Shown one piece after another: positions 2,167 to 53,337 of a stretch of DNA of 64,000 nucleotides. The translations under genes and the position numbers were made by a program. The first letter of the stretch is position 1. Each line of letters opens with the position of its first letter. The stretch covers positions 63,146-127,145 of the forward strand of contig CAWECS010000005.1 of the NCBI GenBank assembly GCA_963807455.1. The letters run 5' to 3'. The notes under the pieces were generated by a model. That model was not told where the DNA came from and did not search any database. It was given only the letters and a program-made list of their open reading frames with translations. Source of the stretch: an uncultured Gammaproteobacteria bacterium. GTDB lineage: Bacteria > Pseudomonadota > Gammaproteobacteria > JAADHQ01.

Positions 2167-4263
2167 GTGGCACGTACAACTTCCATAGATCGATACCGTA
2201 ATATAGGTATCATGGCGCACATTGATGCCGGGAAGACAACGACGACAGAGCGAGTCCTTTTTTATACAGGAGTCTCGCACAAGATTGGAGAGGTTCATGA
2301 TGGCGCAGCCACTATGGACTGGATGGAACAGGAGCAAGAGCGCGGAATAACGATTACTTCTGCAGCCACGACCTGTTTCTGGAAAGGCATGGATCAGCAG
2401 TTCAAGGAACATCGTATTAATATTATTGATACGCCTGGACATGTTGATTTCACCATTGAAGTAGAACGATCCTTGCGGGTGCTCGATGGCGCCTGCGCTG
2501 TTTTTTGCGCGGTAGGCGGTGTTGAGCCGCAGTCAGAAACAGTCTGGCGTCAGGCAGCTCGCTACGAAGTACCGAGAATGGCCTTCGTCAACAAGATGGA
2601 TCGATCAGGCGCAAATTTTTTGCGCGTGGTAGAACAGATAAAAGATCGCCTCGGAAGCACTCCGGTGCCAATGCAAATGAATATTGGCACTGAAGAAGCA
2701 TTTGAGGGTGTAGTTGACCTGGTGAGAATGCGGGCCATCTACTGGAACGAAGAAGATCGGGGTGTGACTTATGAAGCCCGCGATATTCCGGAAGCCTTGC
2801 TTGACCAGTGTCGCGAACTACGTGAGCAGATGGTCGAAGCGGCTGCCGAAGCAACTGAAGAGTTGATGGATAAATACCTTGAGCAGGGTGAGCTCTCGGA
2901 AGACGAAATTCGTGAAGGTATTCGTCTGCGTACATTGAGTAATGAAGTGGTGCCATGTTTCTGTGGCTCTGCATTCAAAAACAAAGGTGTGCAGGCTATG
3001 TTGGATGCAGTAATTGACTACATGCCTTCACCGCTGGATGTTCCAGCCATTAAGGGTGTCCTTGATGACAAGGATGAAACGGAAGGCGAGCGCCATTCAT
3101 CAGATGATGAGCCGTTTGCAGCACTGGCCTTCAAGATAGCAACGGATCCATTTGTTGGAACCTTGACTTTCTTCCGGGTCTATTCTGGCGTGATTAGTTC
3201 CGGCGACTCGGTTTATAACCCGGTCAAGGGTAAAAAAGAGCGCATTGGGCGTATTGTGCAGATGCATGCCAATAGCCGTGAAGAGATTAAAGAAGTACGC
3301 GCTGGTGATATAGCAGCGGCGGTTGGTTTAAAAGACGTGACTACAGGTGAGACATTATGTGACCTGAATAATATTATCACGTTGGAGCGCATGGAATTTC
3401 CGGATCCGGTTATTTCGATTGCCATTGAACCAAGAACCAAGAGTGACCAGGAAAAGATGGGGGTCGCTCTGTCCAAGTTGGCACAGGAAGATCCGTCTTT
3501 TCGAGTGCATACGGATGAAGAATCCGGGCAAACCATCATTTCCGGGATGGGCGAGCTACACCTGGAAATTATTGTCGACCGGATGAAGCGTGAATTTAGT
3601 GTTGAAGCGAATGTAGGTAAGCCGCAAGTAGCATACCGGGAAACGATTCGTTCAACCGTAGAACAGGAAGGCAAGTTCATCAGGCAGTCAGGTGGACGAG
3701 GTCAATACGGCCACGTTTGGTTGAAGATAGAGCCGCAGGAGCCGGGAAGCGGTTACGAATTTGTTAATGGCATTGTCGGCGGGGTCGTACCTCGTGAGTA
3801 TGTGCCAGCAGTAGATAAAGGTATTCAAGAACAGATGCAGAGTGGTGTTCTAGCGGGATACCCGGTTGTTGATGTAAAAGTCACTCTGTATGACGGTTCT
3901 TATCATGATGTGGACTCGAACGAAATGGCATTTAAAATTGCCGGATCCATGGGTTTCAGAGACGGGGTTACACAAGCAAGCCCTGTTTTACTTGAGCCGA
4001 TCATGAGCGTTGAAGTGGTGACACCTGAAGATTATATGGGTGATGTCATGGGAGACCTGAATCGACGACGAGGTCTTGTGCAGGGGATGGATGATAGTCC
4101 GGCTGGCAAGATTATTCGTGCCGAGATTCCATTGTCTGAAATGTTTGGTTATGCCACTGACTTGCGATCAGCAACCCAGGGCCGAGCCACTTATTCGATG
4201 GAATTTGAAAAGTATAGTGAGGCTCCTGCCAGTGTGGTAGCAGCTGTGACGAAATCGTTTTAA
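2167..4263 (+). CDS. fusA: Elongation factor G
   Basis: 698 aa from a GTG start. G1 motif [20 protein letters not shown] and the whole EF-G domain set. Confidence 0.97.
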
Positions 4264-7444: not shown

Positions 7445-8272
7445 ATGGCGATAGTAAAAGTTAAACCGACATCACCTGGCCGACGTGGCTTGGTAAAAAT
7501 TGTCTCCCCGCATTTGCATAAGGGTGAGCCGCATGAGCCATTGCTTGAGAAAAAGAGCAAAAATGGCGGTCGTAATAATTACGGCAGAATCACGGTTCGT
7601 CATCATGGTGGTGGGCACAAGCAGCGTTATCGCATAATCGATTTCAAACGCGACAAGACAGGTATTCCTGCGGTCGTTGAAACGATAGAGTATGACCCGA
7701 ACAGAACAGCACATATCGCGCTTGTACTGTATGCCGATGGTGAGCGTCGATATATTATCGCTCCCAAAGGTTTGCGTTCCGGCGATCAAATTATGTCTGG
7801 CGTTGATGCGGCAATTAAAGCGGGTAATGCCTTACCTATGCGTAATATTCCTGTTGGAACAACCGTGCATAATATTGAAATGAAGCCTGGCAAAGGCGGC
7901 CAGATTGCACGAAGTGCAGGCACCTCGGCGCAAATCGTAGCCAGAGAAGGAGCGTATGTCACACTCAGACTGCGTTCAACTGAAATGAGAAAAGTATTAT
8001 CAGACTGTATGGCCACTATTGGTGAAGTCAGTAATGACGAGCACAGTTTGCGCAAGTTGGGTAAGGCTGGTGCATCACGCTGGCGTGGTATCAAGCCGAC
8101 AGTTCGTGGTGTTGCCATGAACCCGGTTGATCATCCGCATGGTGGTGGTGAAGGCCGTACCTCTGGTGGGCGTCATCCCGTATCTCCATGGGGAACGCCA
8201 ACAAAAGGTTATAAAACTCGTAAGAACAAGCGTACTAGTCGCTTGATCGTACGCCGTCGGACTAAAAAGTAA
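7445..8272 (+). CDS. rplB: 50S ribosomal protein L2
   Basis: 275 aa, ..[22 protein letters not shown].. and a C-terminal GGGEGR.. Confidence 0.97.
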
Positions 8273-8289
8273 GGACTGAGGTGTAAACT

Positions 8290-8562
8290 GTGCCACGTTC
8301 AGTAAGAAAAGGTCCATTTGTTGATCTGCATTTAATCAAAAAGGTAGATGAGGCAAAGGCCACAAATAGCAAAAAACCGATCAAGACATGGTCAAGAAGA
8401 TCCATGGTATTGCCTGATATGGTGGGTTTAACCATCGCTGTACATAATGGCCGTCAACACGTGCCAGTGCTGATTTCAGACAACATGGTTGGCCACAAAC
8501 TCGGCGAATTCTCGGCAACCCGGACTTTTAAGGGTCATGCCGGTGATCGTAAAGCCAGGTAA
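8290..8562 (+). CDS. rpsS: 30S ribosomal protein S19
   Basis: 90 aa, GTG start, [15 protein letters not shown].. Confidence 0.95.
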
Positions 8563-8574
8563 CGGAGTGTTGAA

Positions 8575-8904
8575 ATGACATCAGCAAAGCTAACAAATGC
8601 AAAAATTTCGGCACAAAAAGTCCGCCTCGTGGCTGATCAGGTGCGAACCATGCCGGTAGAGCGCGCGCTGGATTTACTGACTTTCAGTAATAAAAAAGCT
8701 GCAGCCCTGGTAAAGAAAGTGCTGGAATCTGCCATCGCCAATGCCGAGCATAATGACGGTGCTGATATTGACGAGCTGAAAGTTAAAACAATTTATGTGG
8801 ACGAAGGTCCTACCCAGAAGCGCTGGAGAGCCAGAGCCAAGGGTCGTGGTAACAGAATTCTGAAACGCACCAGTCACATTACCGTGACTGTGGCTGACTC
8901 GTAA
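8575..8904 (+). CDS. rplV: 50S ribosomal protein L22
   Basis: 109 aa, L22 sequence. Confidence 0.95.
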
Positions 8905-8919
8905 TAGGAGCAGACCGTA

Positions 8920-9591
8920 ATGGGTCAAAAAGTACATCCAACTGGTATTCGACTAGGTATATCAAAAGACTGGACAGCACGCTGGTACGCTGGATCAGAT
9001 ACATTTGCAGATACCCTGGAACAAGACCTGAGAGTTCGCGAGTATCTTAAAAAGAGGCTGTCACAGGCTTCAGTGAGTCGTATTCAAATTGAACGACCAG
9101 CTCGTAGTGCACGTGTCACTATCTTTACTGCCAGACCAGGAATGGTTATTGGTAAGAAAGGTGAAGATATTGAGAAACTGCGTAACGAATTGATCAAGAT
9201 GATGGAAGTACCTGTTACGGTCAATATTGAAGAAATACGCAAGCCTGAGCTCGATGCACTGTTGGTGGCTGAGAGCGTTGCGCAGCAACTGGAACGTAGA
9301 ATCATGTTTCGACGTGCCATGAAGCGAGCCGTTCAAAATGCGATGAGACTGGGTGCCCTGGGTATCAAGATCAATGTCTCTGGTCGTCTGAATGGTGCAG
9401 AAATCGCACGTGCCGAGTGGTACCGCGAAGGTCGAGTACCACTGCATACACTGCGTGCTGATATTGATTATGGTACGGCCGAGGCGAACACAACCTACGG
9501 TATAATTGGAATCAAGGTTTGGATCTTTAAAGGTGAAGTATTTGAAGATGCCGAAGCAGAAGCTGACAGTCAAGCAGCAACAGCCAGCTAA
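8920..9591 (+). CDS. rpsC: 30S ribosomal protein S3
   Basis: 223 aa, [14 protein letters not shown].. with a KH domain. Confidence 0.97.
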
Positions 9592-9605
9592 CGGAGTTCT
9601 GGATA

Positions 9606-10019
9606 ATGTTACAACCAAAGAGAACAAAGTTTCGTAAACAAATGAAAGGTCGCAATCGTGGCCTGGCCCAGGCTGGCAACAAAGTCAGTTTTGGTGAGTA
9701 CGGACTTAAAGCGGCCGAGCGTGGACGTATCACTGCTCGCCAGATTGAGGCTGCACGTCGTGCACTAACACGTCACATTAAACGTGGCGGTAAAGTATGG
9801 ATTCGTTTGTTTCCAGACAAGCCCATCACCAAAAAGCCTCTTGAAGTACGTCAAGGTAAGGGTAAGGGTAACGTAGAATACTGGGTGTCATTAGTGCAGC
9901 CGGGTTCGATGTTGTATGAGATGGAAGGTGTTTCAGAGGAAATTGCACGTGAAGCATTTCGTCTGGCGAGTGCGAAGCTGCCCATCAAGACTATTTTTGT
10001 AAGTCGGACGGTGATGTAA
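9606..10019 (+). CDS. rplP: 50S ribosomal protein L16
   Basis: 137 aa, [19 protein letters not shown].. Confidence 0.97.
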
Positions 10020-10213
10020 TGAAAGCGAACGATCTTCGTCAGAAAAATGAACAGGATTTATCCAAAGAACTGGATGGCTTGTTGCGCGAGCAGTTTAACC
10101 TGAGAATGCAGCAGGGTACCGGACAGTTGACAAGACCTGATCAAATGAAAAAAGTGCGCCGTAATATTGCCCGCATTAAAACTGTATTAAATGAAAAAGT
10201 CCCGTACAGGTGA
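10019..10213 (+). CDS. rpmC: 50S ribosomal protein L29
   Basis: 64 aa, [14 protein letters not shown].. Confidence 0.93.
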
Positions 10214-10219
10214 CGCGTC

Positions 10220-10480
10220 ATGAGTGAAGCTGCCCAGGTAGAAAAAAATGCACGTACCATTTCCGGTCGCGTCGTGAGTACTAAAATGGACAAGACGATT
10301 ACTGTCCTGGTTGAGCGTAAGGTAAAACATCCTATTTATGGAAAGTTTATCCGGCGTTCTACCAAGATCCATGCGCATGATGAAAATAATGTGTGTAATG
10401 AAGGCGATAACGTTGTTATTGAGCAGTGTCGTCCTGTATCAAAATCCAAAAGCTGGAATTTGGTAAAAGTAGTCAATTAA
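10220..10480 (+). CDS. rpsQ: 30S ribosomal protein S17
   Basis: 86 aa, ..[17 protein letters not shown].. Confidence 0.95.
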
Positions 10481-10493
10481 CAAACAACAGGTT

Positions 10494-10530
10494 GTCGCTC
10501 ACTGACGGTGAGTAACAGCGAATTTTTAAT
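10494..10530 (+). terminator. Hairpin plus T-rich tract between the S10 and spc blocks (possible attenuator or partial terminator)
   Basis: TCGCTCAC (10495-10502), loop TGACG, then GTGAG(TAACA)GCGA as an imperfect stem. The sequence ATTTTTAATTT follows. Confidence 0.35.
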
Positions 10531-10551
10531 TTAAGTATTTGGAAGTTAGCC

Positions 10552-10920
10552 ATGATACAGATGCAAACAGTGCTTGATGCGGCGGATAATAGTGGTGCTC
10601 GCCGTGTACAGTGCATTAAGGTACTGGGAGGCTCGCACAGACGCTATGCCGGGATTGGTGACATTATTAAGGTCAGTATCAAGGAAGCTATTCCGCGTGG
10701 TAAAGTCAAAAAGGGTGAGGTTTATAACGCCATAGTCGTACGTACGCGTAAAGGCGTGCGTCGTGCAGATGGTTCACTGATCCGTTTTGATGGAAATGCA
10801 GCTGTTTTACTTAATGCGAACCTGCAGCCTATTGGCACTCGTATCTTTGGCCCTGTAACACGTGAGTTGCGTGGTGAGAAATTTATGAAAATAATCTCAC
10901 TGGCACCTGAAGTGCTTTAA
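10552..10920 (+). CDS. rplN: 50S ribosomal protein L14
   Basis: 122 aa, [17 protein letters not shown].. Confidence 0.97.
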
Positions 10921-10934
10921 TCGGAGACTGGATT

Positions 10935-11252
10935 ATGCGCAAAATTAAAAAGGGTGATGAGGTAGTAGTAACTACTGGTAAAGACAAAGGTCGACGTGGC
11001 ACTGTTAGTAGTGTGCTGGCTGACGGTCGAGTGATCGTTGAGAATGTTAATGTTGTCAAAAAACACGTGAAAGCCAATCCCAATGCCGGGGTTGCTGGTG
11101 GAATTGTTGACAAAGTGATGCCTATCAATGGTTCCAATGTCATGCTGTATAATCCAGCCATTGATAAAGGCGACAAAGTTGGCTTCAAGTTCCTAGAAGA
11201 TGGCAGAAAAGTTCGTTATTTCAAGTCGAATGACGAAGTGATTGATGCGTAA
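10935..11252 (+). CDS. rplX: 50S ribosomal protein L24
   Basis: 105 aa, [19 protein letters not shown].. Confidence 0.95.
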
Positions 11253-11266
11253 GGGTTGATGTAACG

Positions 11267-11806
11267 ATGGCTAGATTGCAAGAATTATATAAAACAACTT
11301 TAGTTGACCAGTTAAAAGATGAGCTGGGCCTGAAGAATGTAATGGAAGTGCCCAAGATCACCAAGATCACTATTAATATGGGTGTGGGTGAGGCTCTGGC
11401 TGACAAGAAAGTACTTGAGCATGCTGTTAGTGACATGGAAAAAATTTCCGCCCAAAAGGCAGTCATTACCAAAGCACGTAAATCCATTGCGGGTTTTAAG
11501 TTACGTGAAGACTGGCCAGTGGGTTGCAAGGTAACGCTGAGACGGGAACGCATGTATGAGTTTCTGGATAGATTAATCAGCATCGCCATACCACGAATTC
11601 GAGATTTTCGTGGTTTGAATCCAAAGAGCTTCGATAGCAATGGCAATTTCAGCATGGGAACCGATGAACAGATCATTTTCCCGGAAATTGACTATGACAA
11701 AATTGACACGTTAAGAGGGTTGGATATTACTATCACAACCACTGCACGTAACGCGGATGAAGGAAGAGCCTTGTTAAAGGCGTTTAACTTCCCTTTTAAA
11801 GGCTGA
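11267..11806 (+). CDS. rplE: 50S ribosomal protein L5
   Basis: 179 aa, [16 protein letters not shown].. Confidence 0.96.
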
Positions 11807-11816
11807 GGATATTTGA

Positions 11817-12122
11817 ATGGCTAAGACAAGTATGATCAATCGCGAAAACAAGCGAACTCAAACTGTTAAAAAATATGCAGCCAAGAGAGAAGCGTTGAGA
11901 GCGATTATTAAAAGTGCGGCATCCAGCTACGAAGAAATAACAGCGGCTGTCAATAAATTACAGGCATTGCCAAGAGATGCCAGTCCATGCAGAGGGCGTA
12001 ATCGCTGCAGACTGACAGGCAGACCACATGGTTTTTACCGTAAGTTTGGTTTGTCACGTAACAAACTTAGAGAAGCGGCAATGCGCGGAGATGTACCCGG
12101 CCTGCGCAAGGCTAGTTGGTAG
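11817..12122 (+). CDS. rpsN: 30S ribosomal protein S14
   Basis: 101 aa long-form S14 (no zinc ribbon). Confidence 0.95.
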
Positions 12123-26070: not shown

Positions 26071-27445
26071 ATGAGAGCAATTTTCAAGAAAACGATGCTG
26101 GCTGCATCGTGTGCTGCTGCAATTGGCGGCATCAATACTACAGTACAGGCTGCCGACTGGTTATCAATACAGGGCACCGAGGCTCATGGTACAGCGGGTC
26201 GCGCCAAGGTATGGGGGTTTATCCAGGCGCAGTATCAGAGTGATAACAGTGCAGCCAAATGGCGCTGGCACATATGTGCCACCCAAGTTGATTGGACCTG
26301 ATCTTGACTCGCAGGATGCATTTAATGTTAACCGTGCACGTATTGGCGTGCGTGGAACTGGTATGCCAATCGATCCTAACGTGAACTATTTCTTCCTGGT
26401 TGAGTTTGGTAATAATGCCATTACCAATCCAGGTAGCGGATTTGCCAAGGTGACCGATGCCAGTATTACCTTGAACCATTTGAAAGAATATGCGCGTGTT
26501 CGTGCAGGTCAGTTCAAGATCCCGATGGCTGAAGAGGTCTATCAGGGTATTGCCTTGATTGACTATGTAAACTTTACTGCATGGTGTTAACCAGATGTTG
26601 CTGGAGCGTGTTCCTAACAGAGCATACACTGGTAACGTTGCTCCGCAGCCAATAGCATCTACAACTTCATTAAATGCCTTTAACCAGTCAATTGATGCTG
26701 CACGTGATGTCGGTGTGCAGGTGTTTAATACCTTCAAAGTAGCGCCAAGCTGGGAAGCCAGTTACTCATTTATGGTTGGTAATGGTAACGGTATCAACAG
26801 TTCGGACAATGATAACGCAAAAGATTATCATCTGTATTTTTCTACCGCCAAAGTGTTTAAAGGTACAGGTCCAAGACGCCAGGACTGGAAAACTTTTGCC
26901 TGGTATACCAAAGGTGATCGTCATCTTGATGGTAACAATGATGGTGTAACTGAAGAATATGACCGTAAACGCTATGGTGTCGGTACCCGTTACCTCAAAC
27001 TACCTTTCCGCGTAGCGGTTGAGTGGATCAAGGCCAAAGGCGTTATTTTCCAGGGTCCGGATAAACCAAGCTTTGGGTTGTTGCCGTCCTTCCATAGGTA
27101 ATCCTACAACATCCTGCTAATGGATTGAATGATAATGCGGAAGCCAGTCAGTGGTCATATTGATGTTGGATATTATATTCCCAATACAAAATGGGAGCTG
27201 GATCTGCGCTATGCTGATTACACCCGTATGGAAGACTCTAATTGGTGCGTTCGTCAATTTGCACCTGAAGAGAATTCACGGTACTTGGGTGTTCAGTATC
27301 ACTTCAACAAGAAAACACGTTTGACTGTCAACGTCACTGACCGTGAGGTCGAAGCTCACTGCATTCGCTGCAGGTGCAGGTGCCAAATGGAAATCTGGAT
27401 GGTATTGATAAGCGTTATGCAGTACAGCTGACGCATATCTTCTAA
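26071..27445 (+). pseudogene. Outer-membrane porin (phosphate-selective OprO/OprP-like) disrupted by 6 or more frameshifts and in-frame stops
   Basis: A signal peptide (MRAIFKKTMLAASCAAAIGGINTTVQA) begins at 26071 after a GAGGAG Shine-Dalgarno. Porin-like segments continue in frame 2 (26300-26590: ..NRARIGVRGTG..QFKIPMAEE..), frame 3 (26595-27101) and other frames. A C-terminal ..YAVQLTHIF* ends at 27445 with the terminal Phe typical of OMP beta-barrels. No single frame is open. Confidence 0.5.
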
Positions 27446-27517: not shown

Positions 27518-27548
27518 AGAAGAAAATTATTGAGGTTGGAAATGAAGC

Positions 27549-28054
27549 ATGAAAAACTGTCTAACTGCTAGCATGCTTGCTATATTGCAAGCCTGTCGGG
27601 TCTTCCAATGTTAAGGATAGCAAGCCGCAAATGTAACATCTGATCCAGCTGGCGCAAGCGTTTATGCGAATGGGGCCAAGTTGGGAGTGACGCCATTACG
27701 GGCATAATTTGTTCAAGGCATTTCCTGCGGGATGGAATAACTGGGTGCTGAGTGCGCAAGGAGTACTGATGGTCAAGAAATCAGGCTGCGAGGATTTCAT
27801 GCTCAAAGTCAATGACGCCATTATTAGCCAGCCAATTCATGCGAAGTTGAATTGTGACAAAGCAGCCGCCACTGCCAAGCAAGAAGCGGATACCCAGGTT
27901 ACAGCCAGCTGCCAGCACGGCAGTCAGCCCTGCATCGCCCAAAGCCAGCCAGACTGAGGAACGTTTGAGTGAATTAAAGGAGCTGTATGAAAAAGGCGTG
28001 ATCACAAAGCAGGAATATGCCGCCACCCGGAAAAGGATACTGAATGAGCTGTAA
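27549..28054 (+). pseudogene. Lipoprotein with PEGA-like and C-terminal SHOCT domains, disrupted by several frameshifts
   Basis: A lipoprotein signal with lipobox (MKNCLTASMLAILQAC) runs into a stop after 21 codons. A PEGA-like segment (SDPAGASVYANGAKLGVTPL) and ..KKSGCEDFMLKVND.. lie in other frames. The last 66 codons (27854-28054) are an intact SHOCT motif (LSELKELYEKGVITKQEYAATRKRIL). Confidence 0.4.
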
Positions 28055-29489: not shown

Positions 29490-29872
29490 ATGGATGCATT
29501 AGAGAATCTGGAAGTTTGGAAAAGAGCATGTAGACTTTCGGTGAGCATTTATCAAGTTTTTGCAGATAGTAAACAGTATGCTTTTAAGGATCAGATTACA
29601 CGTTCTGCTTTTTCAATTCCGTCGAATATCGCTGAAGGGTATGAAAGGGGTAGGTCATTACAGAATCCAGTTTTTAAATAATTGCTAAAGGTTCCTGCGG
29701 CGAACTTTGGACTCAATTAATGATCGGTAGAGCAGCAGGCTTGATTGATGCTGAAACGAGTAAAGAGCTGGAAAATGAAGCCAGGGAAATTTCAAAAATG
29801 CTTTATGGCTTAATGAAGTATTATAATGAAATTCAAGAAAAACTGGTTCCTAGCAAAAACCTAGTCTACTAG
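29490..29872 (+). pseudogene. Four-helix-bundle protein (23S rRNA intervening-sequence protein family, TIGR02436-like) with two +1 frameshifts
   Basis: Frame A reads [43 protein letters not shown], then stops. The family consensus continues as ..QFL.. in the +1 frame and as IIAKGSCGELWTQLMIGRAAGLIDAETSKELENEAREISKMLYGLMKY.. in the +2 frame, ending at 29872. AAGGAGG Shine-Dalgarno upstream. Confidence 0.6.
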
Positions 29873-29902
29873 TCCCTCGGTCACCTCGCTACTGTTATTT
29901 AT

Positions 29903-29976
29903 TGGGGAATCGTCTAACGGCAGGACAGAGGACTCTGACTCCTCTAATCAAGGTTCGAATCCTTGTTCCCCAGCCA
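29903..29976 (+). tRNA. tRNA-Gln (anticodon CUG)
   Basis: 74 nt. 7-bp acceptor stem TGGGGAA/TTCCCCA, D-arm GTCT..GGAC, anticodon stem GAGGA/TCCTC with loop CTCTGAC (anticodon CTG), T-arm CAAGG-TTCGAAT-CCTTG, discriminator G and an encoded CCA. Very similar to E. coli tRNA-Gln. Confidence 0.9.
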
Positions 29977-29987
29977 AAAAATAATAA

Positions 29988-30010
29988 CCCGCTTAGGCGG
30001 GTTTTATTTT
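29988..30010 (+). terminator. Terminator after tRNA-Gln
   Basis: CCCGC, loop TTAG, GCGGG, then TTTTATTTT. Confidence 0.7.
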
Positions 30011-30030
30011 GCTGGCGAACAGCGGAGCTT

Positions 30031-30066
30031 GCGGTTGCTCCTGCGCATCCATGCGCCCGCAACCGA
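30031..30066. repeat. REP-like palindromic element, copy A (inverted relative to copies B and C)
   Basis: GCGGTTGCTCCTGCGCATCCATGCGCCCGCAACCGA. Its reverse complement shares the core GCGGGCGCA(T/C)GGATGCGCAGGAGC with copies at 32803 and 32896. It is internally palindromic (GCGCAT..ATGCGC). Confidence 0.7.
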
Positions 30067-30412
30067 AGTGCCATTCCTTAGAGAAAGTTATAAACGGCAA
30101 TAAGCGCTTCCGAGTGCCCCTTATCAAAATACCGCTTAACGATAGTTAAATATCAACGATGAATGAAAATGGTAATGCAGGTGCGCTGGGCGCTGGGTGT
30201 ACCCATAATTGTTTATATTATTCTTCCAGACTGGGTGTTTAATAGTATTCAAGATCGTCTAGTAATTCATTCCCATATAGTCTGATACTTAGCAAGGCGC
30301 CATTTTATTAGCATTAGAATGTGGCGCAACATTCTGATTTTAATGCCATATTATATAATGTTGTAAATATGATACAGCTATTATAGGTGTGTCGTTTTTT
30401 TGAATAAAAATG

Positions 30413-30440
30413 TTGCATTTTTCTTTTTTGTTGCTATAGT
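30413..30440 (+). promoter_or_regulatory. sigma70-type promoter of porin copy 1 (TTGCAT-N16-TATAGT)
   Basis: TTGCAT 30413-30418 and TATAGT 30435-30440, about 50 nt upstream of the ATG. The same architecture occurs upstream of copy 2. Confidence 0.55.
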
Positions 30441-30489
30441 TCATGGCGTGTTTACAAATATAACTAAATTATTTAGAGGAATTCCTTAG

Positions 30490-31473
30490 ATGAATAAAAA
30501 ATTACTTGCTATTGCGGTGGGTGCAGCATTCAGTGCCGCTCCTATGTTTGCTTCTGCTGAAGTGACTGTTTATGGTCATGCTCAGGTTGAAGTGGGAACT
30601 GTTGATAATGGTACAACTGATACAAACAGTCGTTGAAGATAACGCTCGTGGACGTATTGGTTTCAAGGCTTCTGAAAAGCTGGGTAATGGTATGACAGCT
30701 ATCGCCAAGTACGAATTCCGTACTGATACTGCTGATAACGTTCGTACAGCAGATGGTGGTCCACTGACTGCACGTGAAGCCTTTGTTGGTTTGAAAGGTG
30801 GTTTCGGTACTGTTCAACTGGGTAACTTGAAGTCAGCTTATAAATACAACGGTGGTGTTAAGTATGACCCCTTCGTTGCTACATTGATTGAAGCTCGTGG
30901 CGCTAACGGTATGTCTAAAGGTGACTGGTAGGTGCATTTGGTCACAATGGTTTCCTCGCTAACAGTATTGGTTACATGTCGCCGAAGATCGGTGGTGGTT
31001 TCACTGGTTGGGCTACTTTCAGCCCTGATGAAGCTGGAGCAGGATAATGGTGCCGATGGCGACTATAGCTTTGGTCTGAAGTTTGCTCAAAAAGCCTGGG
31101 AAGTATTTGTTGCTGGTGTTAACAATGATGACGCTGCAAGTTACGAATGCAATCAAATTTGGTGGTATGTACAAATTTGGTAACTTCAAGGTTACTGGTC
31201 AGTACGAAATGGTGAGCTTCAATACTGGCTGCTACGCAGATACTGATGTTTATTTCATCGGTGGACAGGCCAAGTTTGGTAATAATGTATTGGTTGCGCA
31301 GTTCGGTAATTCAAGGATACAGACGGACGGCTGCTGATCTTGATTACTTCACTATCGGTGTCATTCATAATCTGTCCAAGAAAACACGTCTGACAGCTGG
31401 TTTCCGTAGCTACGATACTAGTGCTACAGCTGAAACTGATACATTTGCTGTTGGCATGCGTATGAAGTTCTAA
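30490..31473 (+). pseudogene. Outer-membrane general porin (Gram-negative/Neisseria-type porin family), tandem copy 1, disrupted by 5 or more frameshifts
   Basis: Starts MNKKLLAIAVGAAFSAAPMFASAEVTVYGHAQVEVGTVDNG (signal peptide) and ends ..AVGMRMKF*. Paralogous to 31748-32727 along its full length, but the reading frame changes near 30630, 30930, 31050, 31140 and 31320. Confidence 0.7.
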
Positions 31474-31499
31474 TAAAAACTATTAAAGTTGTATAGTTT

Positions 31500-31528
31500 G
31501 AACGGGGCCTTATGGACCCCGTTTTTTA
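31500..31528 (+). terminator. Rho-independent terminator after porin copy 1
   Basis: AACGGGGCC, loop TTATG, GACCCCGTT, then TTTTATT. Confidence 0.75.
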
Positions 31529-31677
31529 TTGTCGTAAATTTGATAATACTTAGCACTTGTTAATGAATACTTGCTTATTTTTGACGATAAGCCAGATACG
31601 AAAACCTAACAATAATCTATATTTAATAAACATTTACATGTGTGGATAATATCATTGTTGTTTTATTACAAAGATTG

Positions 31678-31705
31678 TTGCAATAAAACAGAATGTTGCT
31701 ATAGT
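31678..31705 (+). promoter_or_regulatory. sigma70-type promoter of porin copy 2 (TTGCAA-N16-TATAGT)
   Basis: TTGCAA 31678-31683 and TATAGT 31700-31705. The motif ...TGTTGCTATAGT.AT is shared with copy 1. Confidence 0.55.
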
Positions 31706-31747
31706 CATCCATGTTAATGGATATCTATTACTTGAGGAATCAATCAA

Positions 31748-32727
31748 ATGAATAAAAAATTACTTGCACTTGCCGTGGGCACAGCTTTCACGGCAGTACC
31801 AATGTTCGCAACTGCTGACGTGACTGTTTATGGCCATGCACAGGTTGAAGTGGGAACAGTTGATACAGGCGCAACTGATCAAACAGTTGTAGAGGATAAC
31901 GCACGCGGTCGTATTGGTATCAAGGCATCTGAGAAACTGTCTAATGGTATGACGGCTATCGCCAAGTACGAATTCCGTACTGATACTGCTGATAACGTTC
32001 GTACAGCAGATGGTGGCCCACTGACTGCTCGTGAAGCCTTTGTTGGTTTGAAAGGTGGTTTCGGTACTGTCAATTGGGTAACTTGAAGTCAGCTTATAAA
32101 TACACCGGTGGTGTTAAGTATGATCCCTTCGTCGCTACATTGATTGAAGCACGTGGTGCCAATGGTATGTCCGGTGGTGAACTGGGCAATGGTCAATATG
32201 GCCATAACAGCTTCCTGGGTAACGCAATTGGCTATATGTCACCCAAAATCGGCGGTGGTTTCACTGGCTGGGCGACATTCAGCCCTGATGAAGGTGCTGG
32301 TTCAGGCGGTGATTACAGCTTTGGTTTGCAGTTTGCTCAAAAAGCCTGGGAAGTATTTGTTGCCGGTGTTAGAAATGACGAAACTGTAGGTGCTGGTGGT
32401 GATGCAATCAAGTTTGGTGGTATGTACAAATTTGGTAACTTCAAGGTTGTTGGCCAGTACGAAACACTGAGTTTTGAAACAGCAGGTACGCCTGACACTG
32501 ATATCTATTTCGTCGGTGGTCAGGCCAAGTTTGGTAACAATGTATTGGTTGCCCAGTTCGGTAACAAGGATCCAGGCGGTGCTGCTTCTGATCTTGATTA
32601 CTTCACCATTGGTTTGATTCATAACCTGTCCAAGAAGACACGTCTGACAGCTGGTTTCCGTAGCTATGATACAAGTGCTACTACAGAAACTGAAACATTT
32701 GCTGTTGGCATGCGTATGAAGTTCTAA
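31748..32727 (+). pseudogene. Outer-membrane general porin (Neisseria-type porin family), tandem copy 2, interrupted by a single 1-nt deletion
   Basis: MNKKLLALAVGTAFTAVPMFATADVTVYGHAQVEVG.. has a signal peptide and aromatic girdle and ends ..FAVGMRMKF. One frame change lies near 32060-32075: ACTGTCAATTGGG here against ACTGTTCAACTGGG in copy 1. Otherwise about 326 aa are open. It could be functional if the indel is a sequencing error. Confidence 0.7.
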
Positions 32728-32755
32728 TAAAAACTAATAAAGTTTTATATATTTG

Positions 32756-32786
32756 AACGGGGCCTTCGGGCCCCGTTTTTTTTTGG
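32756..32786 (+). terminator. Rho-independent terminator after porin copy 2
   Basis: AACGGGGCC, loop TTCG, GGCCCCGTT, then T9. Confidence 0.8.
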
Positions 32787-32802
32787 CCATGGATGGCCTT
32801 AT

Positions 32803-32837
32803 GCCGCGGGCGCACGGATGCGCAGGAGCGGCGTCTC
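32803..32837. repeat. REP-like palindromic element, copy B
   Basis: GCCGCGGGCGCACGGATGCGCAGGAGCGGCGTCTC. Confidence 0.7.
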
Positions 32838-32895
32838 AAAGTAAATATCATACTTAAATCGAAGTAGAGGAAAAAAGCTATTTCCCTCCAGATGC

Positions 32896-32926
32896 TCGCG
32901 GGCGCACGGATGCGCGGGAGCGGCGT
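32896..32926. repeat. REP-like palindromic element, copy C
   Basis: CTCGCGGGCGCACGGATGCGCGGGAGCGGCG, in the same orientation as copy B and 93 nt downstream of it. Confidence 0.7.
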
Positions 32927-33113
32927 TTCACATCGTTTGCATGTTTTCAAATGTAGAATGCAATTTTTATGTTTGCAGATTAATAAAAAAATAGTGGATA
33001 GTGAGGTTAATTGAATATTTTTTTTCACGATTAGCCGTGATTTGACGTTTATCACCCGGCCTCATTCCTGTATGGAGTAATCAACGGGTTATCTTTTGGG
33101 TTATCATTGAGAC

Positions 33114-38317: not shown

Positions 38318-38731
38318 GGGTAAATTAAGCCTGTTGTTTTCGACCATTCACTGACTAAAAAGCACTTGGTTACATAAGGGTTATCGTCATTTGGTCAACA
38401 ATTCTTTAAACGGATGATGTTTATTCCCTGCCAATTTTATTTTTTATTGAATGTGATAATGTATGTCATTGATATTGATTTATATTTAGCAGGGTATTTG
38501 TTTTTAGTCACAGGTAATTAATCTATGCGATTGATAGCAAGTTTAGGCTTTCCTGGCCTACTTTTTGCTATAGAGACCCGCTATTTATTAATGTTATTTA
38601 GCCACAAGGCGAGTTTTTAGTCCTGTTTGCAGCGTGAAGATTTTCCCTGTGAGGCCGATATATAAATGGTGAATAATGGTGTCGGACCCGGTAAACATTA
38701 TACAAAATGTTATTTCTCCAGATTTAAGCTT

Positions 38732-40067
38732 ATGCAAAAAACAAAAATATTCTCCCCGCTTTTCAGTTTTGGTATCCGCCAGAAGCTGTTGCTGATCCTG
38801 TTGATTGTGCTGTTAACCGCCTTGACGCTGAGCGGCTGGATGGCATTACAGCAGGAAAAAGTAAATACTCTGGAAGAGATTAATCAGCGCGGTTCGGATA
38901 TCAGTCGTTTTGTTGCCAAGTCGCTCAGTTATAGTGTGGTTGGTTATGATTACCATACCATTCAATTATTGCTGGATGAGATTACGTCATCAGAAGATGT
39001 TGGTTATGCCCGGGTCACCAATCAGCAGGGCAATGTCATGGGCGAGGCCGGTGAAAGGGAACCCGGATTGTTCTCGACGATGGTGATGTTTACCCAGGAT
39101 ATCAAACTTGAGGACAGCCTCATCGGAAATCTGGAATTAGGGTTGAGCACAGCTAAAACGATCGAGACTCTTGAAGAAAAAAAATATAGTATCATTCAGC
39201 GTGAAGTTATTATCGTCCTGCTGATTGCGTTAGGAGAGTTTATTGCGCTTTCGATTTTTATTATTCGACCCGTGCGATTAATGTCAAAGACACTTGTTTC
39301 CAGTGTTGATGAAAATGGTCATATTATAGAAAAAATACCGGTTGTGTCTCGTGATGAGTTCGGACAATTGGCTGAAAGTTTTAATACTCTGAGTGAGCGT
39401 CTAAATGTTGCTAATCAGCAACTACAGTCAAAAATAGAGCTGGCTGACAAGCAGTTAGCTGGAGACAAACAGACAGTTGCGGATTCAGTCAGAAGAGTTG
39501 AAAATCATTAATGAGAAATTTAAAAGAATGTCAATTACTGACTCATTAACCGGTTTATATAATCGCAGGCATTTTGAGCAGTTACTAAATACTGAATTTA
39601 AGACGGCCAGACGGCATGGCGAAGTAAATAGCTTGATTATTATTGATATTGATCATTTCAAACGAATTAATGACAATTTCGGACATCCAGCAGGAGACCT
39701 TGTGCTGCGGGATGTTGCCAGGTTACTGAAGAAGCGTCTACGTAGCACAGACTATCTTTGTCGTCTTGGTGGGGAAGAATTTGTAGTGTTATGCAAGCGG
39801 GCTGACAAGCAATCCGCGCTCAATATTGCTGAGGAAATGCGTAAAATAGTAGAACAAGCCCAATTTGATTTGGGAGGTGAGGTAACTCAGGTGACTATTA
39901 GTCTTGGTGTGTCGACACTGAGTCAGAATGAGGAATTAGAAGAGGCTGATCTGGCCTACCGTCAGGCTGACAAGGCGGTCTATTACAGTAAGCAAAATGG
40001 TCGCAATAAAACTGCTCATTATGATGACATCAAGGAACATGAGCTGGTCGATGAGTTTAGTCAGTAA
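38732..40067 (+). pseudogene. Membrane-bound diguanylate cyclase (periplasmic sensor-TM-HAMP-GGDEF) with one frameshift at the HAMP/GGDEF junction
   Basis: ORF 38666/38732-39511 encodes TM1, a periplasmic region of about 130 aa, TM2, HAMP and a coiled coil (..QQLQSKIELADKQLA..) and then stops. The GGDEF domain continues in the -1 frame from about 39459 (..LETNRQLRIQSEELKIINEKFKRMSITDSLTGLYNRR..RLGGEEFVV..). A single indel lies near 39455-39475. Confidence 0.7.
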
Positions 40068-43093: not shown

Positions 43094-43486
43094 CTAGCGT
43101 CTTCTCTTCTTGGCAGCAGCTCTTTTCTTCTTAGCTGGAGCCTTTTTCTTCTTCTTGGCAGCAGCTTTTTTCTTTTTAGCTGGAGCCCTTTTCTTCTTCT
43201 TGGCAGCAGCTTTTTTCTTTTTAGCTGGAGCCCTTTTCTTCTTCTTGGCAGCAGCTTTTTTCTTTTTCTTAGCTGGAGCCTTTTTCTTCTTCTTGGCAGC
43301 AGCTTTTTTCTTCTTAGCTGGAGCCTTTTTCTTCTTCTTAGCTGCAGCTTTTTTCTTTTTAGCTGGAGCTTTTTTCTTCTTAGCTGTTGCCTTCTTCTTC
43401 TTGGCTACAGACTTTTTCTTTTTAGCCACTGCCTTTTTCTTCTTGGCAGGAGCCCTCTTTTTTACTGCTTTCTTTTTAGTTGCCAT
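43094..43486 (-). CDS. Lys/Ala-rich histone H1-like nucleoid protein (AlgP/Hc-like), composed of KKKK-A-P/A-AKKKK repeats
   Basis: 130 aa from the ATG at 43486, which has GGAGG 7 nt upstream: MATKKKAVKKRAPAKKKKAVAKKKK.. followed by about 16 repeats of A(A/P)AKKKK(K). The DNA is a perfect 42-48-nt tandem repeat. The ORF track lists a TTG at 43501. Confidence 0.75.
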   Translation of the reverse strand: MATKKKAVKKRAPAKKKKAVAKKKKSVAKKKKATAKKKKAPAKKKKAAAKKKKKAPAKKKKAAAKKKKKAPAKKKKKAAAKKKKRAPAKKKKAAAKKKKRAPAKKKKAAAKKKKKAPAKKKRAAAKKRRR

Positions 43487-44698
43487 GTTAATGACCTCCA
43501 ATAATAAATAATATAAGTATCGTTTGCTCGCGATTGAGTATATACCAGTAGAAAGAAAATTCCAGTAAAATCAAAAAATAATTTGACTTTTTTAATTTTA
43601 GTTATACTTGAATGTTAAAAAAACATTGTTGCTGGAAATATCTTTTATTGCTGCATTCTGACTTTTGTGTCGGCAAACGATATGAAAACTTAAACTTTAG
43701 GTAACAGAATCGGATAAAAAACGAATATTTTAAAAAAAAATTAGTATATGTAGCCATTTTTGATAATTAATTCGGATTATTTTTAAAAATTTAAAGATGA
43801 AAACTTGTTTTTAGTGTTTCTTGAGTAAGAAATAATTACTTTTTCATTCGCTGAACGAAATTTGAATGCATCAACAGAGATTTTTTAGTTAAATTTATAA
43901 AAATCGTAAAAAAAATGCCTTCGTAATAGTTGGTTTTTCTAAAAAATGCTTTTTTATGTTTATTTTTTCTTTTTTAATTCTATTTTTGTCTTAAATTATC
44001 CTGCTGAACGTGAAAAATGACGCGCAATGTAAAAAAGTGTCGTAATTTTTTACATTTTTTATTGATTGATCACTGACAAATGCGCTGTTTTGACCTGGTT
44101 GTTGTCGTTTGGCCGCTATTTTTCAAAAAATTAATAGAGCCGACTGATAATTTAAGCCGATTTTGTTTTTTTAAAAGAATATTTTTGTCTTTTTGACTCA
44201 CTCAGAGGGTACTAATCGCTGTTCTTGGTTGTTGAAGGGCTTTTATATTGGATGAATGCTCGTACAAGCGGTTTTTTTCAATTGTTTTTGTTGTTCTGAT
44301 AATTTTTATCTTATTTTTTTTGTAAAGTGTAAAAAATTGTAACCAATGGTCATTTTATCTCATGCTGGCTTTTATGCAGAATAATGTTGCCATGCATTCC
44401 CGTTTCTATTCCGGTTGCATGATTTCAATGCATCTATGTTTATTCATACTCTCTTTTGGCTGAATAATTAATCGCTGCCATGAAGATGCAATTTATTATT
44501 TAGACAATTTGAGCAGCATTGATAACGAAGCGTCGATAAAAAGCTTTATGCATTGCAAGATGCAATGAAATGCCGAATGTTTTACCTTAGGCGACTCTGT
44601 TTCAATGAGCAGGTGCGAATGAAACCAGTTTTTTTTCAGCCAGATCGTAAAAACTCTTTTTTGTATTCTACGGCCGCATTATCAAAGGTGGTAAAAAT

Positions 44699-45295
44699 CT
44701 ACTGTTTTGAGGAATAGAGTTTATTTTCAGTGATAACTAATTGCAGCGGTACATCCCAGGTTTGCGGATGGATGTTCGGGACTTTTTGAAACTCATAGGC
44801 AATGCCAATCATTCTGGGTTTGTCCCAATGTTGCCTGAAACGCAAAAAGTTAAAGCTACGGTCATAGTATCCTCCTCCCATACCGATTCGGTGGCATTGC
44901 TGATCAAAGGCCACTAGCGGCGTTATGACCAGATCAAGATGAGTAGCAGGAATTAAATCACGACCATGGTATACCGGCTCGGGAATTCCATAGCGATTGA
45001 TTTGCATTTTGCTGTCGGCATGCCAGCGCGTAAACCAGAGCCGGTTAGTTAAGAAAGGCATCAATACGGGCAGGTAAATTGATTTACCTAACTGACGGGC
45101 CAGATCAACTAATGGTAATGGACTCATTTCACCTTGCATGGGCAGATAAACAGCAAGATTCTGGCTGTTGAGAAAGAACTTATGTTTTTTTAGTCTTGCA
45201 TGCATCATCCAGGCATATTGTTGACGGCTGATGTTATCCAGCTGCTGTCGTTGCCGCTTGATGCGGGATCTGATAGTGGCTATTTCAGTTTTCAT
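44699..45295 (-). CDS. fau: 5-formyltetrahydrofolate cyclo-ligase
   Basis: 198 aa, MTHFS family (..GMGGGYYDRS..). It lies directly downstream of the 6S RNA region, as E. coli ygfA/fau does. Confidence 0.85.
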   Translation of the reverse strand: MKTEIATIRSRIKRQRQQLDNISRQQYAWMMHARLKKHKFFLNSQNLAVYLPMQGEMSPLPLVDLARQLGKSIYLPVLMPFLTNRLWFTRWHADSKMQINRYGIPEPVYHGRDLIPATHLDLVITPLVAFDQQCHRIGMGGGYYDRSFNFLRFRQHWDKPRMIGIAYEFQKVPNIHPQTWDVPLQLVITENKLYSSKQ

Positions 45296-45429: not shown

Positions 45430-45613
45430 AAGGGTCCCGCGTGTGCCGTCGCAGCTTTCGCCCTTGAACCTGAGGTTCAGGTGGGAATAGCGTGGATTCA
45501 TCAGGCTTTCCGCTTCAAGGCGGACTTGCACAACAGTATCTGAACACTAAACCCGGGTATAATAACATGGCTCAAGAATTTACCCGGCTGCTAACGAACA
45601 CCGCAGGAGATCA
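45430..45613 (-). ncRNA. ssrS: 6S RNA (SsrS); end coordinates approximate
   Basis: The minus-strand sequence AUGAUCUCCUGCGGUGUUCGUUAGCAGCCGGG..CUUGAGCC..UAUACC ... CACCUGAACCUCAGGUUCAAGGGCGAAAGCUGCGACGGCACACGCGGGACCC aligns segment by segment with E. coli 6S RNA (..UGUUCGCAAGCGGGCC..CUGAGCC..CAUACC ... CACCUUGAACCAAGGGUUCAAGGG..CUGCGGCGGCAU..). It has the conserved zapA-ssrS-fau synteny. Confidence 0.65.
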
Positions 45614-53093: not shown

Positions 53094-53106
53094 TGCACTT
53101 CAATTA

Positions 53107-53337
53107 CAGACCCGATGGGAGATACCCGAACACTTGTTCGGGAGCCGAAGGCGCAACACATCGCTCGGAAACGCTCAGGCAAACGGACTATCGGGTTATA
53201 TTGACTCTGGAGAGTGATTACATAGGGTGATCCACCGACGGGGCAGAGAATAGGCCATTATGCTGTCATTCTCAATCTCTCAGGTTAAGGGACAGAGGGG
53301 CGGTAACAGGTCTTGGCCTGTTGCCGTCTTTTTTTTG
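53107..53337 (+). promoter_or_regulatory. Glycine riboswitch (tandem aptamers) with terminator expression platform, leader of the gcvT operon
   Basis: Aptamer 1 has P1 CCCGAT..ATCGGG (53111-53195) with GGGAGA, GCCGAAGGCGCAA and CUCAGGCAAACGGAC. Aptamer 2 has P1 CTCTG..CAGAG (53206-53297) with GGAGAG, CACCGACGGGGCA and CUCUCAGGUUAAGGGACAGAG. Then an intrinsic terminator: a 10-bp stem CGGTAACAGG/CCTGTTGCCG plus T8 (53301-53336). This is a classic ON-switch arrangement. Confidence 0.85.

Follow-up and report, generated by a model that had tools for sequence, protein, structure and literature searches.

A conserved tandem porin pair with probably artefactual frame breaks, and a REP-like hairpin element, in an uncultured gammaproteobacterial lineage

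The window analysed here, the whole of a 64,000-nt stretch of DNA from an uncultured gammaproteobacterial lineage, carries two neighbouring porin genes, neither of which has an intact frame in the deposited sequence: the downstream copy (copy 2) is one base short and the upstream copy (copy 1) has six frame-breaking indels. The explanation that we favour, and hold as a whole to be reasonably probable, is that the porin pair is old and its copies undergo gene conversion, that the REP-like palindromes around it did not cause the duplication, and that the frame breaks are most likely artefacts of the consensus sequence. On this view the locus is this lineage's conserved tandem pair of general-diffusion porins, placed between tRNA-Gln(CUG) and a gene of the VTT/DedA family, and, if the breaks are artefactual, both porins probably function in the organism. 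A first-pass annotation had read the same features as a recombination and duplication hotspot bracketed by palindromes, and every feature that it listed was recovered, exactly or to within a few bases (Table 1). The porin locus itself is ordinary, and the more interesting by-product is the REP-like family with its CsrA-like GGA loops.

The tandem porin locus

The two genes are tandem paralogues, as had been annotated, and are 85% identical over their length (mean column identity is 90% with the flanks counted in). Both copies, like all their relatives, start with a signal peptide (MNKKLLALAVGTAF..A) and end in the C-terminal aromatic beta-signal ..FAVGMRMKF. With one base put back at 32070, copy 2 becomes a 326-aa ORF, in agreement with the claim that it lies a single base from intactness, and this product matches Porin_4 (126.4 bits, cut-off 27; E=2.8e-36) and Porin_1 (31.2 bits, cut-off 23.7), while PorB (4AUI) is matched at E=6.6e-10. 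The best foreign porin hit has 86% identity. The AlphaFold model of P0001, a homologue that shares 86% of its residues with repaired copy 2 and stands in for the window protein, is a beta-barrel of about 16-18 strands (pLDDT 85.5) with a short helix at residues 122-125 in loop 3, its best Foldseek matches being Omp32 (TM 0.81) and PorB (TM 0.72-0.74). As judged from this homologue, the predicted fold is the 16-strand Omp32/PorB-type beta-barrel seen in trimeric porins, where loop 3 folds inwards, and the original label of Neisseria-type porins is supported by the profile matches, the 4AUI match and the modelled fold alike.

Table 1. Features of the porin locus and of the damaged genes in the window
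Feature	Coordinates	Strand	Evidence or remarks
Porin_O_P gene	26071-27445	+	seven single-base insertions; dN/dS 0.058 vs L125
SHOCT-domain gene	27545-28054	+	several frame breaks
23S_rRNA_IVP gene, four-helix bundle	29490-29875	+	frame broken by -2, +1, -1
tRNA-Gln (anticodon CTG)	29903-29976	+	ARAGORN; Rfam tRNA 59.8 bits
Terminator-like hairpin, bidirectional, 3' of tRNA-Gln	29986-30003	both	reported on both strands
REP-like partial copy	30033-30074	-	covariance model R1 41.7 bits, E=4.9e-8; exact core; RNA fold z=-3.3
Copy 1 promoter, TTGCAT-N16-TGcTATAGT	30413-30440	+	read directly; conserved in relatives
Upstream porin (copy 1)	30490-31473	+	frame broken by +1, -4, +1, +1, +2, -1
Copy 1 terminator, AACGGGGCC-TTAT-GGACCCCGTT + T-run	31501-31528	+	read directly; conserved in relatives
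Copy 2 promoter, TTGCAA-N16-TGcTATAGT	31678-31705	+	promoter scan; conserved in relatives
Downstream porin (copy 2)	31748-32727	+	1 base missing at 32070, third position of Val codon
Copy 2 terminator	32755-32787	+	10-bp stem, 7 G-C pairs, T-run; fold
REP-like complete 51-nt copy	32783-32833	+	R1 74.4 bits, E=1e-15; proposed structure is the minimum-free-energy fold
REP-like second copy, other first hairpin	32875-32925	+	R1 32.8-34.4 bits
HAMP-GGDEF gene	38666-40067	+	+1 insertion at 39457 splits it into 281 + 196 aa

The two porin genes are separate transcription units: each comes with a sigma-70 extended -10 promoter, a GAGGAA ribosome-binding site and an intrinsic terminator, and encodes a signal peptide. 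The promoter consensus scan by itself gave sites not above chance (6 vs 9.8 expected); the annotated promoter, Shine-Dalgarno and terminator of each copy are taken to be real because they are conserved in 14/14 porin genes of 7 genomes, all of which keep the -35, the extended -10, the Shine-Dalgarno GAGGAA and the terminator AACGGGGCC..GGCCCCGTTT. ARAGORN and Rfam agree on the tRNA-Gln(CUG) reported directly before the pair, and it is placed identically in the relatives L001 and L002. The gene order rplM-rpsI-IVP-tRNA-Gln-porin-porin-VTT-DUF3683 is common to L001, L002, L123, L124/L125, L126/L127 and L128/L129.

Six related lineages have both porins intact (315-327 aa) in this very place, so the duplication is old and predates the split from at least these six. 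Part of the sequence has kept copy-specific signatures common to several genomes: in alignment columns 561-800, the sequences nearest to copy 2 are the L124 (89%) and L123 (86%) downstream copies, and the one nearest to copy 1 is the L124 upstream copy. In columns 121-360, paralogues of the same genome are mutual nearest neighbours in 7/7 genomes, with 81-95% identity within a genome vs about 74% between genomes. Sequence comparison thus indicates continuing gene conversion between the copies in their first third, with the loop-encoding parts copy-specific and variable between lineages. Such a long-lived pair, the conserved part homogenised and the loops diverging, has the pattern expected of a phage- or host-exposed surface protein, and the mutual pairing in all seven genomes bears out the earlier suggestion that the locus encodes a variable surface protein and that its copies recombine. 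The proposed hotspot of REP-bracketed duplication and recombination fares badly: the pair is intact in six lineages, the copy signatures cross genomes and the REP-like copies are positionally conserved.

The REP-like element

The exact REP-like core occurs three times in 64 kb, against 0 expected from 100 shuffles, at 30037-30060 (-), 32806-32829 (+) and 32898-32921 (+), which are the one inverted and two direct flanking copies described before. The first belongs to a partial copy that has the outer stem and the hairpin GCGCA-UGGA-UGCGC and is without the first hairpin; a minus-strand copy lies at the equivalent spot in L001, and a weak one in L123. The complete copy consists of the hairpin GGCCA-UGGA-UGGCC, the linker UUAUG and an outer stem GCCGC/GCGGC around the hairpin GCGCA-CGGA-UGCGC, and both L128 and L126 have its orthologue 3' of their downstream porin. 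Its spacing from the next copy is 92 nt, as it is in L128. On these comparisons the copies at the locus are positionally conserved and old, and not a scar of duplication.

The family as a whole has a 51-nt unit of two hairpins with a (U)AUG linker, often directly 3' of terminators, and covariation supports both hairpins. The exact 24-nt core was found in Oceanospirillales, Steroidobacterales, Acidiferrobacterales, Aeromonadales, Cellvibrionales and further assemblies, a spread of at least five named gammaproteobacterial orders, and one Steroidobacteraceae MAG holds at least 12 loci. Abundant and wide placement of the core had been named beforehand as an outcome that would speak against the hotspot, and across other genomes this is how the core is placed. 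No description of the family was found in Rfam or in the searchable literature.

It is quite possible, if somewhat short of probable, that the palindromes (and these only) are selfish REP/MITE DNA that a RAYT-type (Y1) transposase mobilises and that plays no part for the host. They are short, imperfect, extragenic and multi-copy, occurring as single copies and tandem arrays, some copies sit like insertions inside IS91-like transposase ORFs, and the relative L002 has a Y1_Tnp gene. That gene, however, is not flanked by the element, a RAYT adjoining a copy was not found in 129 loci (about 8 kb each), and tblastn with the L002 protein detected no homologue in the window or among the remaining 128 loci (about 8 kb each). 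The GTAG head is absent, alignments A2 and A3 showing a conserved (T)ATG linker in its place, and an identical 24-nt core in at least five named orders also sits poorly with selfish DNA. Orthologous copies in the window and L128 are about 96% identical while the adjacent spacer has diverged, and in L126 the hairpin is kept through compensatory changes; this identity and these changes together suggest constraint on the element.

In the SELEX consensus for CsrA/RsmA binding, RUACARGGAUGU (PMC4347634), the GGA is presented by the loop of a hairpin, and each 51-nt unit of the element contains two CA-(N)GGA-UG hairpins and one AGGAG. The first hairpin matches the SELEX 12-mer with two mismatches or fewer in 34/142 copies vs 1/142 shuffled, the match being exact in two copies, and tandem arrays stack up to ten GGA loops. 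That the element is an undescribed, Gammaproteobacteria-wide structured module showing CsrA/RsmA-type GGA hairpins behind terminators, its structure kept by selection, nevertheless seems improbable to us. The genes preceding the terminators at which it lies would apparently be highly expressed; at L050, the locus checked, the element has no promoter of its own. If the idea were true, a dispersed and possibly mobile CsrA-binding or 3'-end RNA/DNA element would tie REP-like repeats to global post-transcriptional control. The presence of the 24-nt core in a covarying two-hairpin fold across orders merits a genome-wide survey.

The frame breaks

Copy 1 shows at least five changes of frame, and its description as heavily degraded holds for the reading frame; it fails for the residues, since after repair copy 1 is a normal upstream-type porin in which 0/146 columns invariant in 12 intact relatives are changed (repaired copy 2 has 1). 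No nonsense substitutions were seen. The dN/dS of the porins against their orthologues, 0.11-0.17, equals that of intact-vs-intact pairs, and that of the 23S_rRNA_IVP gene is 0.067; the values for the broken genes (0.06-0.17) match those of intact pairs, and their substitutions give no sign of relaxed selection. The breaks themselves have a peculiar make-up. At one site in copy 1 the relatives have long and short alleles 15 nt apart (MSKGELGNG vs MTGG), and copy 1 retains 11/15 nt of the difference, as expected from a mixed read pile-up; two further breaks read as out-of-register mixes of upstream-type and downstream-type sequence, and the base missing from copy 2 is at a polymorphic third codon position. 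Tandem Repeats Finder reported nothing in either porin gene, and there was no homopolymer at any break context examined in the porins and the other damaged genes.

Four further genes are damaged in the same way, and they are variable or else probably multi-copy. Porin_O_P has 0 single-base deletions against its 7 insertions, none of them in a homopolymer; the 23S_rRNA_IVP gene is intact (117-124 aa) in L001, L002, L123 and L124, and HAMP-GGDEF is one 443-aa gene in L124 and L125. All the damage falls on members of variable families, namely both porin genes and the Porin_O_P, SHOCT, IVP and GGDEF genes, and undamaged in the window are rplM, rpsI, VTT, the ribosomal-protein operons and the DUF3683 gene of 1280 aa. 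Over the damaged genes about 12 single-base insertions stand against about 4 single-base deletions, and the indel sites are strain-variable spots.

From this mutation spectrum we infer that the frame breaks are most likely consensus artefacts, and that the lost porin frames in particular are probably artefactual. The errors would stem from a consensus of heterogeneous reads, whether the mixture came from strains living side by side or from cross-talk of paralogues; blended errors of this kind would be unusual if the assembly is short-read based. The lesson of the porin locus is mainly one of caution: when the assembly of an uncultured organism shows a series of "pseudogenes" among its variable or multi-copy genes, they can be consensus artefacts, for which indels without substitutions, insertion bias and unchanged dN/dS are cheap tests, and to label such loci phase-variable, or the genome decaying, would be wrong.

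The main rival, unlikely but deserving weight, is that the frameshifts are real and reflect a very recent loss of both porins, Porin_O_P, SHOCT, IVP and the GGDEF protein as fresh pseudogenes, for example because the lineage moved into a niche that is protected or associated with a host. Six dispensable genes are disrupted within 64 kb with interleaved essential genes intact, a sparing of essential genes that selection-filtered gene loss also predicts; all relatives have intact copies, and the public assembly has the identical sequence, P0022, P0369 and P0371 being gene fragments from the window's own 229,157-nt contig. Eight or nine frame breaks per gene should, however, be accompanied by many substitutions, and copy 1 has its invariant residues unchanged, dN/dS is not raised and nonsense substitutions are missing among those seen. 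Moreover, three tiny deletions fall in one 18-nt stretch that is indel-polymorphic in relatives, an unnatural pattern for real loss, and the spectrum is insertion-biased and outside homopolymers, the opposite of the deletion bias that bacterial pseudogenes reportedly show.

Largely refuted, and very improbable, is the first-pass model in which the palindromes drive duplication or recombination while porin expression is turned on and off by reversible indels. In its favour, the porin loops differ from lineage to lineage, recombination joins the copies, a single base separates copy 2 from an intact ORF and REP-like copies lie on either side of the pair. Against it, no simple-sequence repeat tract was found at the frame breaks or close to them, some six corrections would have to coincide to restore copy 1, four unrelated window genes are hit alike, the pair and its flanking REP-like copies keep their position across lineages, and no REP-like copy was found between the two window porins.

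Comparison with known systems

Like REP/BIME and REPIN-RAYT of E. coli and Pseudomonas, the element is a short GC-rich imperfect palindrome, extragenic and often 3' of genes or terminators, which is present singly, in pairs or in tandem arrays, with multiple copies per genome. REP and REPIN sequences are restricted to a species or genus, whereas the core of the present element occurs in at least five named orders; it further differs in its two hairpins and (U)AUG linker within a 51-nt unit, in lacking a GTAG head and in its mostly direct, not inverted, arrays. With CsrB/RsmZ-type RNAs it shares the display of GGA in hairpin loops, both of its hairpins having CA-(N)GGA-UG; unlike them, its copies are scattered over the genome and match no Rfam Csr/Rsm family (CsrB, CsrC and RsmX/Y/Z gave none even at E<=10).

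Among models for the broken genes, the neutrally decaying pseudogene agrees with the frame, which is disrupted relative to intact orthologues, but not with the rest: there is no raised dN/dS, next to no replacement at invariant sites (0/146 in copy 1, one in copy 2) and no deletion bias. Phase-variable contingency loci such as Neisseria porA and opa switch at homopolymer or pentamer tracts. The window shares with them a surface-protein gene one indel from intact, and differs in that its break is without a simple-sequence repeat, copy 1 is broken repeatedly and unrelated genes are affected alike.

The porins themselves resemble Omp32 of Delftia/Comamonas acidovorans and Neisseria PorB in profile match, signal peptide, C-terminal ...MRMKF, predicted barrel and loop 3 helix, although they are only about 22-24% identical to solved porins, belong to an uncultured gammaproteobacterial lineage that conserves them as a tandem pair and have both reading frames broken in the deposited sequence. 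For the pair, the parallel is Brucella omp2a/omp2b, two porin genes side by side between which gene conversion carries sequence. In both systems segmental conversion makes mosaics of adjacent paralogues, but the copies in the window are direct tandem genes, each with a conserved promoter and terminator, and their conversion is concentrated in the 5' third.

The porin pair and its history

The two porin genes of the window (coordinates in the table) are 85% identical over the genes, with 96-98% identity at alignment columns 241-360. Their promoters combine TTGCAT or TTGCAA, a 16-nt spacer and TGcTATAGT, and the Shine-Dalgarno sequence is GAGGAA. A consensus promoter scan by itself performed no better than chance; nevertheless, these signals can be accepted as real, since the -35 box, extended -10 box, Shine-Dalgarno sequence and terminator hairpin are kept in all 14 porin genes of the seven genomes compared. 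The description of the pair in the first-pass annotation as tandem paralogues after tRNA-Gln, each with its own signals, was thus borne out, both terminators included. Use of this tRNA as an island integration site was ruled out, the tRNA and porins being syntenic in all relatives.

With its indel corrected in frame, copy 2 encodes 326 aa and matches Pfam Porin_4 (126 bits), and among proteins of solved structure the Neisseria PorB porins (4AUI, E=6.6e-10) are nearest to it in sequence. An AlphaFold model, made not of the window protein but of the database homologue P0001 (86% identical to repaired copy 2), has a pLDDT of 85.5 and forms a beta-barrel in which loop 3 contains a short helix; its top structural matches are Omp32 (TM 0.81), PorB (0.72-0.74) and BpsOmp38. 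Given these matches in sequence and structure, the label "Neisseria-type porin" is fair.

Six related lineages, found via porin homologues, share the order rplM, rpsI, 23S_rRNA_IVP (IVP), tRNA-Gln, porin, porin, VTT/DedA, DUF3683 oxidoreductase, and each of them has two intact porins (315-327 aa). In the loop-rich columns 561-800, copy 2 has its nearest neighbours in the downstream porins of L124 (89%), L123 (86%) and L001 (83%), and copy 1 in the upstream porin of L124. These nearest neighbours by position indicate that the porin duplication predates the related lineages. At columns 121-360, the copies of the same genome are mutual nearest neighbours in 7/7 genomes (81-95% identity vs ~74% between genomes), a likeness that reflects segmental gene conversion. 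The earlier idea of a variable, recombining surface-porin locus therefore stands, but the duplication is neither recent nor REP-driven. In one of these lineages (L001), two extra genes (Calx-beta, Big_9) lie between tRNA-Gln and the first porin (1947-3739), and a 20-nt deletion breaks the DUF3683 gene in two (8125-11950).

Features of the window discussed in the text
Feature	Position	Strand	Remark
Porin_O_P gene	26071-27445		seven single-base insertions
SHOCT gene	27545-28054		several frame breaks
IVP gene	29490-29875		indels -2, +1, -1
tRNA-Gln(CTG)	29903-29976		
Bidirectional terminator-like hairpin	29986-30003		3' of tRNA-Gln
REP-like element	30033-30074	-	without canonical first hairpin; covariance model
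Porin copy 1	30490-31473		direct paralogue of copy 2
Porin copy 2	31748-32727		direct paralogue of copy 1
REP-like element	32783-32833		complete; covariance model
REP-like element	32875-32925		without canonical first hairpin; covariance model
HAMP-GGDEF gene	38666-40067		+1 at 39457
5-formyltetrahydrofolate cyclo-ligase gene	44699-45295	-	follows 6S RNA
6S RNA	45430-45612	-	
Tandem glycine riboswitch	53106-53305	+	ahead of putative gcv operon

The porin locus itself is ordinary, of a known kind. The same holds for the glycine riboswitch, the genes behind which are probably the gcv operon, and for the 6S RNA with its cyclo-ligase gene, the classical ssrS-ygfA arrangement. Elsewhere in the window, a 135-aa ORF on the minus strand (43094-43501) consists almost entirely of A/K/P repeats (..KKKKAPAKKKKAAAKKKK..) and is histone-H1-like; a Pfam search at this position, run on the opposite-strand ORF, gave no match. 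Next to it lies a stretch of ~1.2 kb (43511-44699) without any ORF of at least 60 aa.

Frame breaks in the porins and neighbouring genes

At 32070 a single base is missing from copy 2. Copy 1 follows the frame path 0-1-0-1-2-0, and its frame-breaking indels are +1, -4, +1, +1, +2 and -1. Damage of the same type affects the Porin_O_P, SHOCT, IVP and HAMP-GGDEF genes (see table), in all ~10% of the genes in the window, whereas every housekeeping gene is intact, including rplM, rpsI, the VTT/DedA gene, the 1280-aa DUF3683 gene and the entire ribosomal-protein region. In ~4 kb of damaged genes there are ~20 frame-breaking indels, against none in ~5 kb of adjacent intact genes. As the housekeeping genes are interleaved with the damaged ones yet clean, randomly placed errors are excluded.

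The frame breaks are probably, if by no means securely, the product of a consensus built from heterogeneous reads, which would fail exactly in variable or multi-copy genes; such errors would stem from co-existing strains, or from reads shared between paralogues. Several of the breaks coincide with sites that vary among relatives. Close relatives carry alleles that differ by 15 nt (MSKGELGNG or MTGG), and at this site copy 1 retains 11 of the 15 nt, the rest having gone in three tiny gaps. Two more breaks look like out-of-register mixes of upstream-like and downstream-like sequence, and the base absent from copy 2 belongs to a polymorphic third codon position.

A real, very recent inactivation of the genes in this lineage is a less likely, rather doubtful alternative, and the damage is unlike natural decay in several respects. 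Repaired copy 1 has no change at the 146 residues invariant in 12 intact relatives, and copy 2 has one; dN/dS against orthologues (0.058 for Porin_O_P, 0.067 for IVP, 0.11-0.17 for the porins) falls in the range of pairs of intact genes, and nonsense substitutions are absent. Indels in bacterial pseudogenes are deletion-biased, while here single-base insertions outnumber single-base deletions by ~12:4 overall and by 7:0 in Porin_O_P, all the insertions lying outside homopolymers. Porin, SecY and DUF3683 queries returned no second assembly of the source species among their database matches, the best foreign matches being 86%, 98% and 92% identical, respectively; database fragments that match the window exactly are limited to P0022, P0369 and P0371, all from its own 229,157-nt contig.

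That the indels switch porin expression is very improbable, since no simple-sequence repeat was found in or near the porin genes. The main claim of the first-pass annotation, a REP-bracketed hotspot with indel switching, is consequently not supported, the pair and the REP-like copies both being old and the genes having no repeat tract. Programmed ribosomal frameshifting was ruled out at the break in copy 2, where direct reading revealed no slippery motif. With consensus failure as the favoured reading, the "pseudogenes" at the porin locus are suspect calls.

A widespread REP-like element

The 24-nt core of the REP-like element occurs three times in the window, where no copy is expected, always at the porin locus, and a covariance model search of the window recovered these three copies only. 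It is nonetheless not specific to this locus: in a scan with each species represented by one genome, at least 119 stretches contain an exact match, and the named isolates among the matches listed belong to Oceanospirillales (Marinobacterium), Steroidobacterales, Acidiferrobacterales, Aeromonadales and Cellvibrionales.

Together with its flanks, the core forms a 51-nt unit that comprises a first hairpin (NNNCA-(N)GGA-UGNNN), whose loop is conserved while its stem varies, a (U)AUG linker, and an outer stem around the hairpin GCGCA-YGGA-UGCGC; folding the window copies by minimum free energy yields this structure too. The three outer pairs of the outer stem covary (gcc/ggc, gtc/gac, gct/agc, ccc/ggg). 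A plain alignment by MAFFT shows 96.9% pairing in the outer stem, three pairs of which vary on both sides. When 137 matches from 100 sources were then aligned with the covariance model, a fit that biases the alignment towards the structure, 13 of 15 pairs included compensatory change and 96.9% of cells were paired, vs 12-59% with partners slid.

The element pair 3' of the downstream porin, including its 92-nt spacing, is common to the window and the related lineage L128; L126 has a diverged copy in the same place with compensatory stem changes, and L001 has minus-strand copies upstream of its first porin. When the window is compared with L128, identity is ~96% over the element but only about half over the adjoining spacer. 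Shared position, together with better conservation than the spacer, marks the window copies as old residents rather than duplication scars; they are possibly under constraint.

About one third of the copies with a first hairpin lie directly 3' of a T-run, and the terminator hairpins ahead of the element vary between genomes. Among the comparison loci L003-L121, genes ending just before the element, identified by eye only from their C-termini, appear to include rplI, rplT, dnaK, gap, glnA, efp, ompA-like, lpp-like, yidC and porin genes. The distribution suggests a preference for the terminators of highly expressed genes. Tandem arrays with a period of 51 nt also exist: in Marinobacterium ramblicola (L050, 4508-4754) five units begin 39 nt past the rpoS stop, before convergent fdxA-mutS. 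In Pseudomonas, the rpoS-fdxA spacer houses rsmZ; the array has no Rfam match and is the only one at rpoS-fdxA among the fetched loci.

Inverted copies were also observed inside an apparent IS91-family transposase ORF (L081, 5834-5884 and 6139-6188; L056, 5770-5820 and 6268-6317; likewise L073 and L093), at the same two positions across different assemblies (..QRFGSALNLNI[insert]HMLFLDGVY.. and ..YRDGTTHV[insert]..). This ORF may represent a decayed IS with the copies as inserts. The IS91-like context in a "Klebsiella" MAG had no match in the plasmid collection, and that contig may be mis-binned.

Relation to REP elements and CsrA sites

Rfam searches with gathering thresholds and with E<=10 gave no match to the element, no copy was found in E. 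coli genomes, and we found neither a paper containing the core sequence nor literature on a REP-CsrA link in this sense; a literature search on RAYT/REP in marine gammaproteobacterial genera yielded nothing useful. No RAYT gene was found beside the element copies in the fetched loci (~8 kb per locus). In the related lineage L002, a Y1_Tnp (IS200/RAYT-like) gene directly follows the DUF3683 gene (10231-10941), with no flanking element copy; in the window, this place is taken by a DnaJ-domain gene on the opposite strand.

The element behaves like REP elements but, unlike them, has no GTAG head and is not confined to one species or genus. As far as could be found, the family is new within the REP kind, and it is the part of the locus worth following up. 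There is also a likeness between its loops and RUACARGGAUGU, the CsrA SELEX site, in which GGA is placed in the loop of a hairpin (PMC4347634), the first hairpin being at most two mismatches from this site in 34/142 copies, vs 1/142 after shuffling; the link to CsrA is thus one of sequence resemblance, with a putative function.
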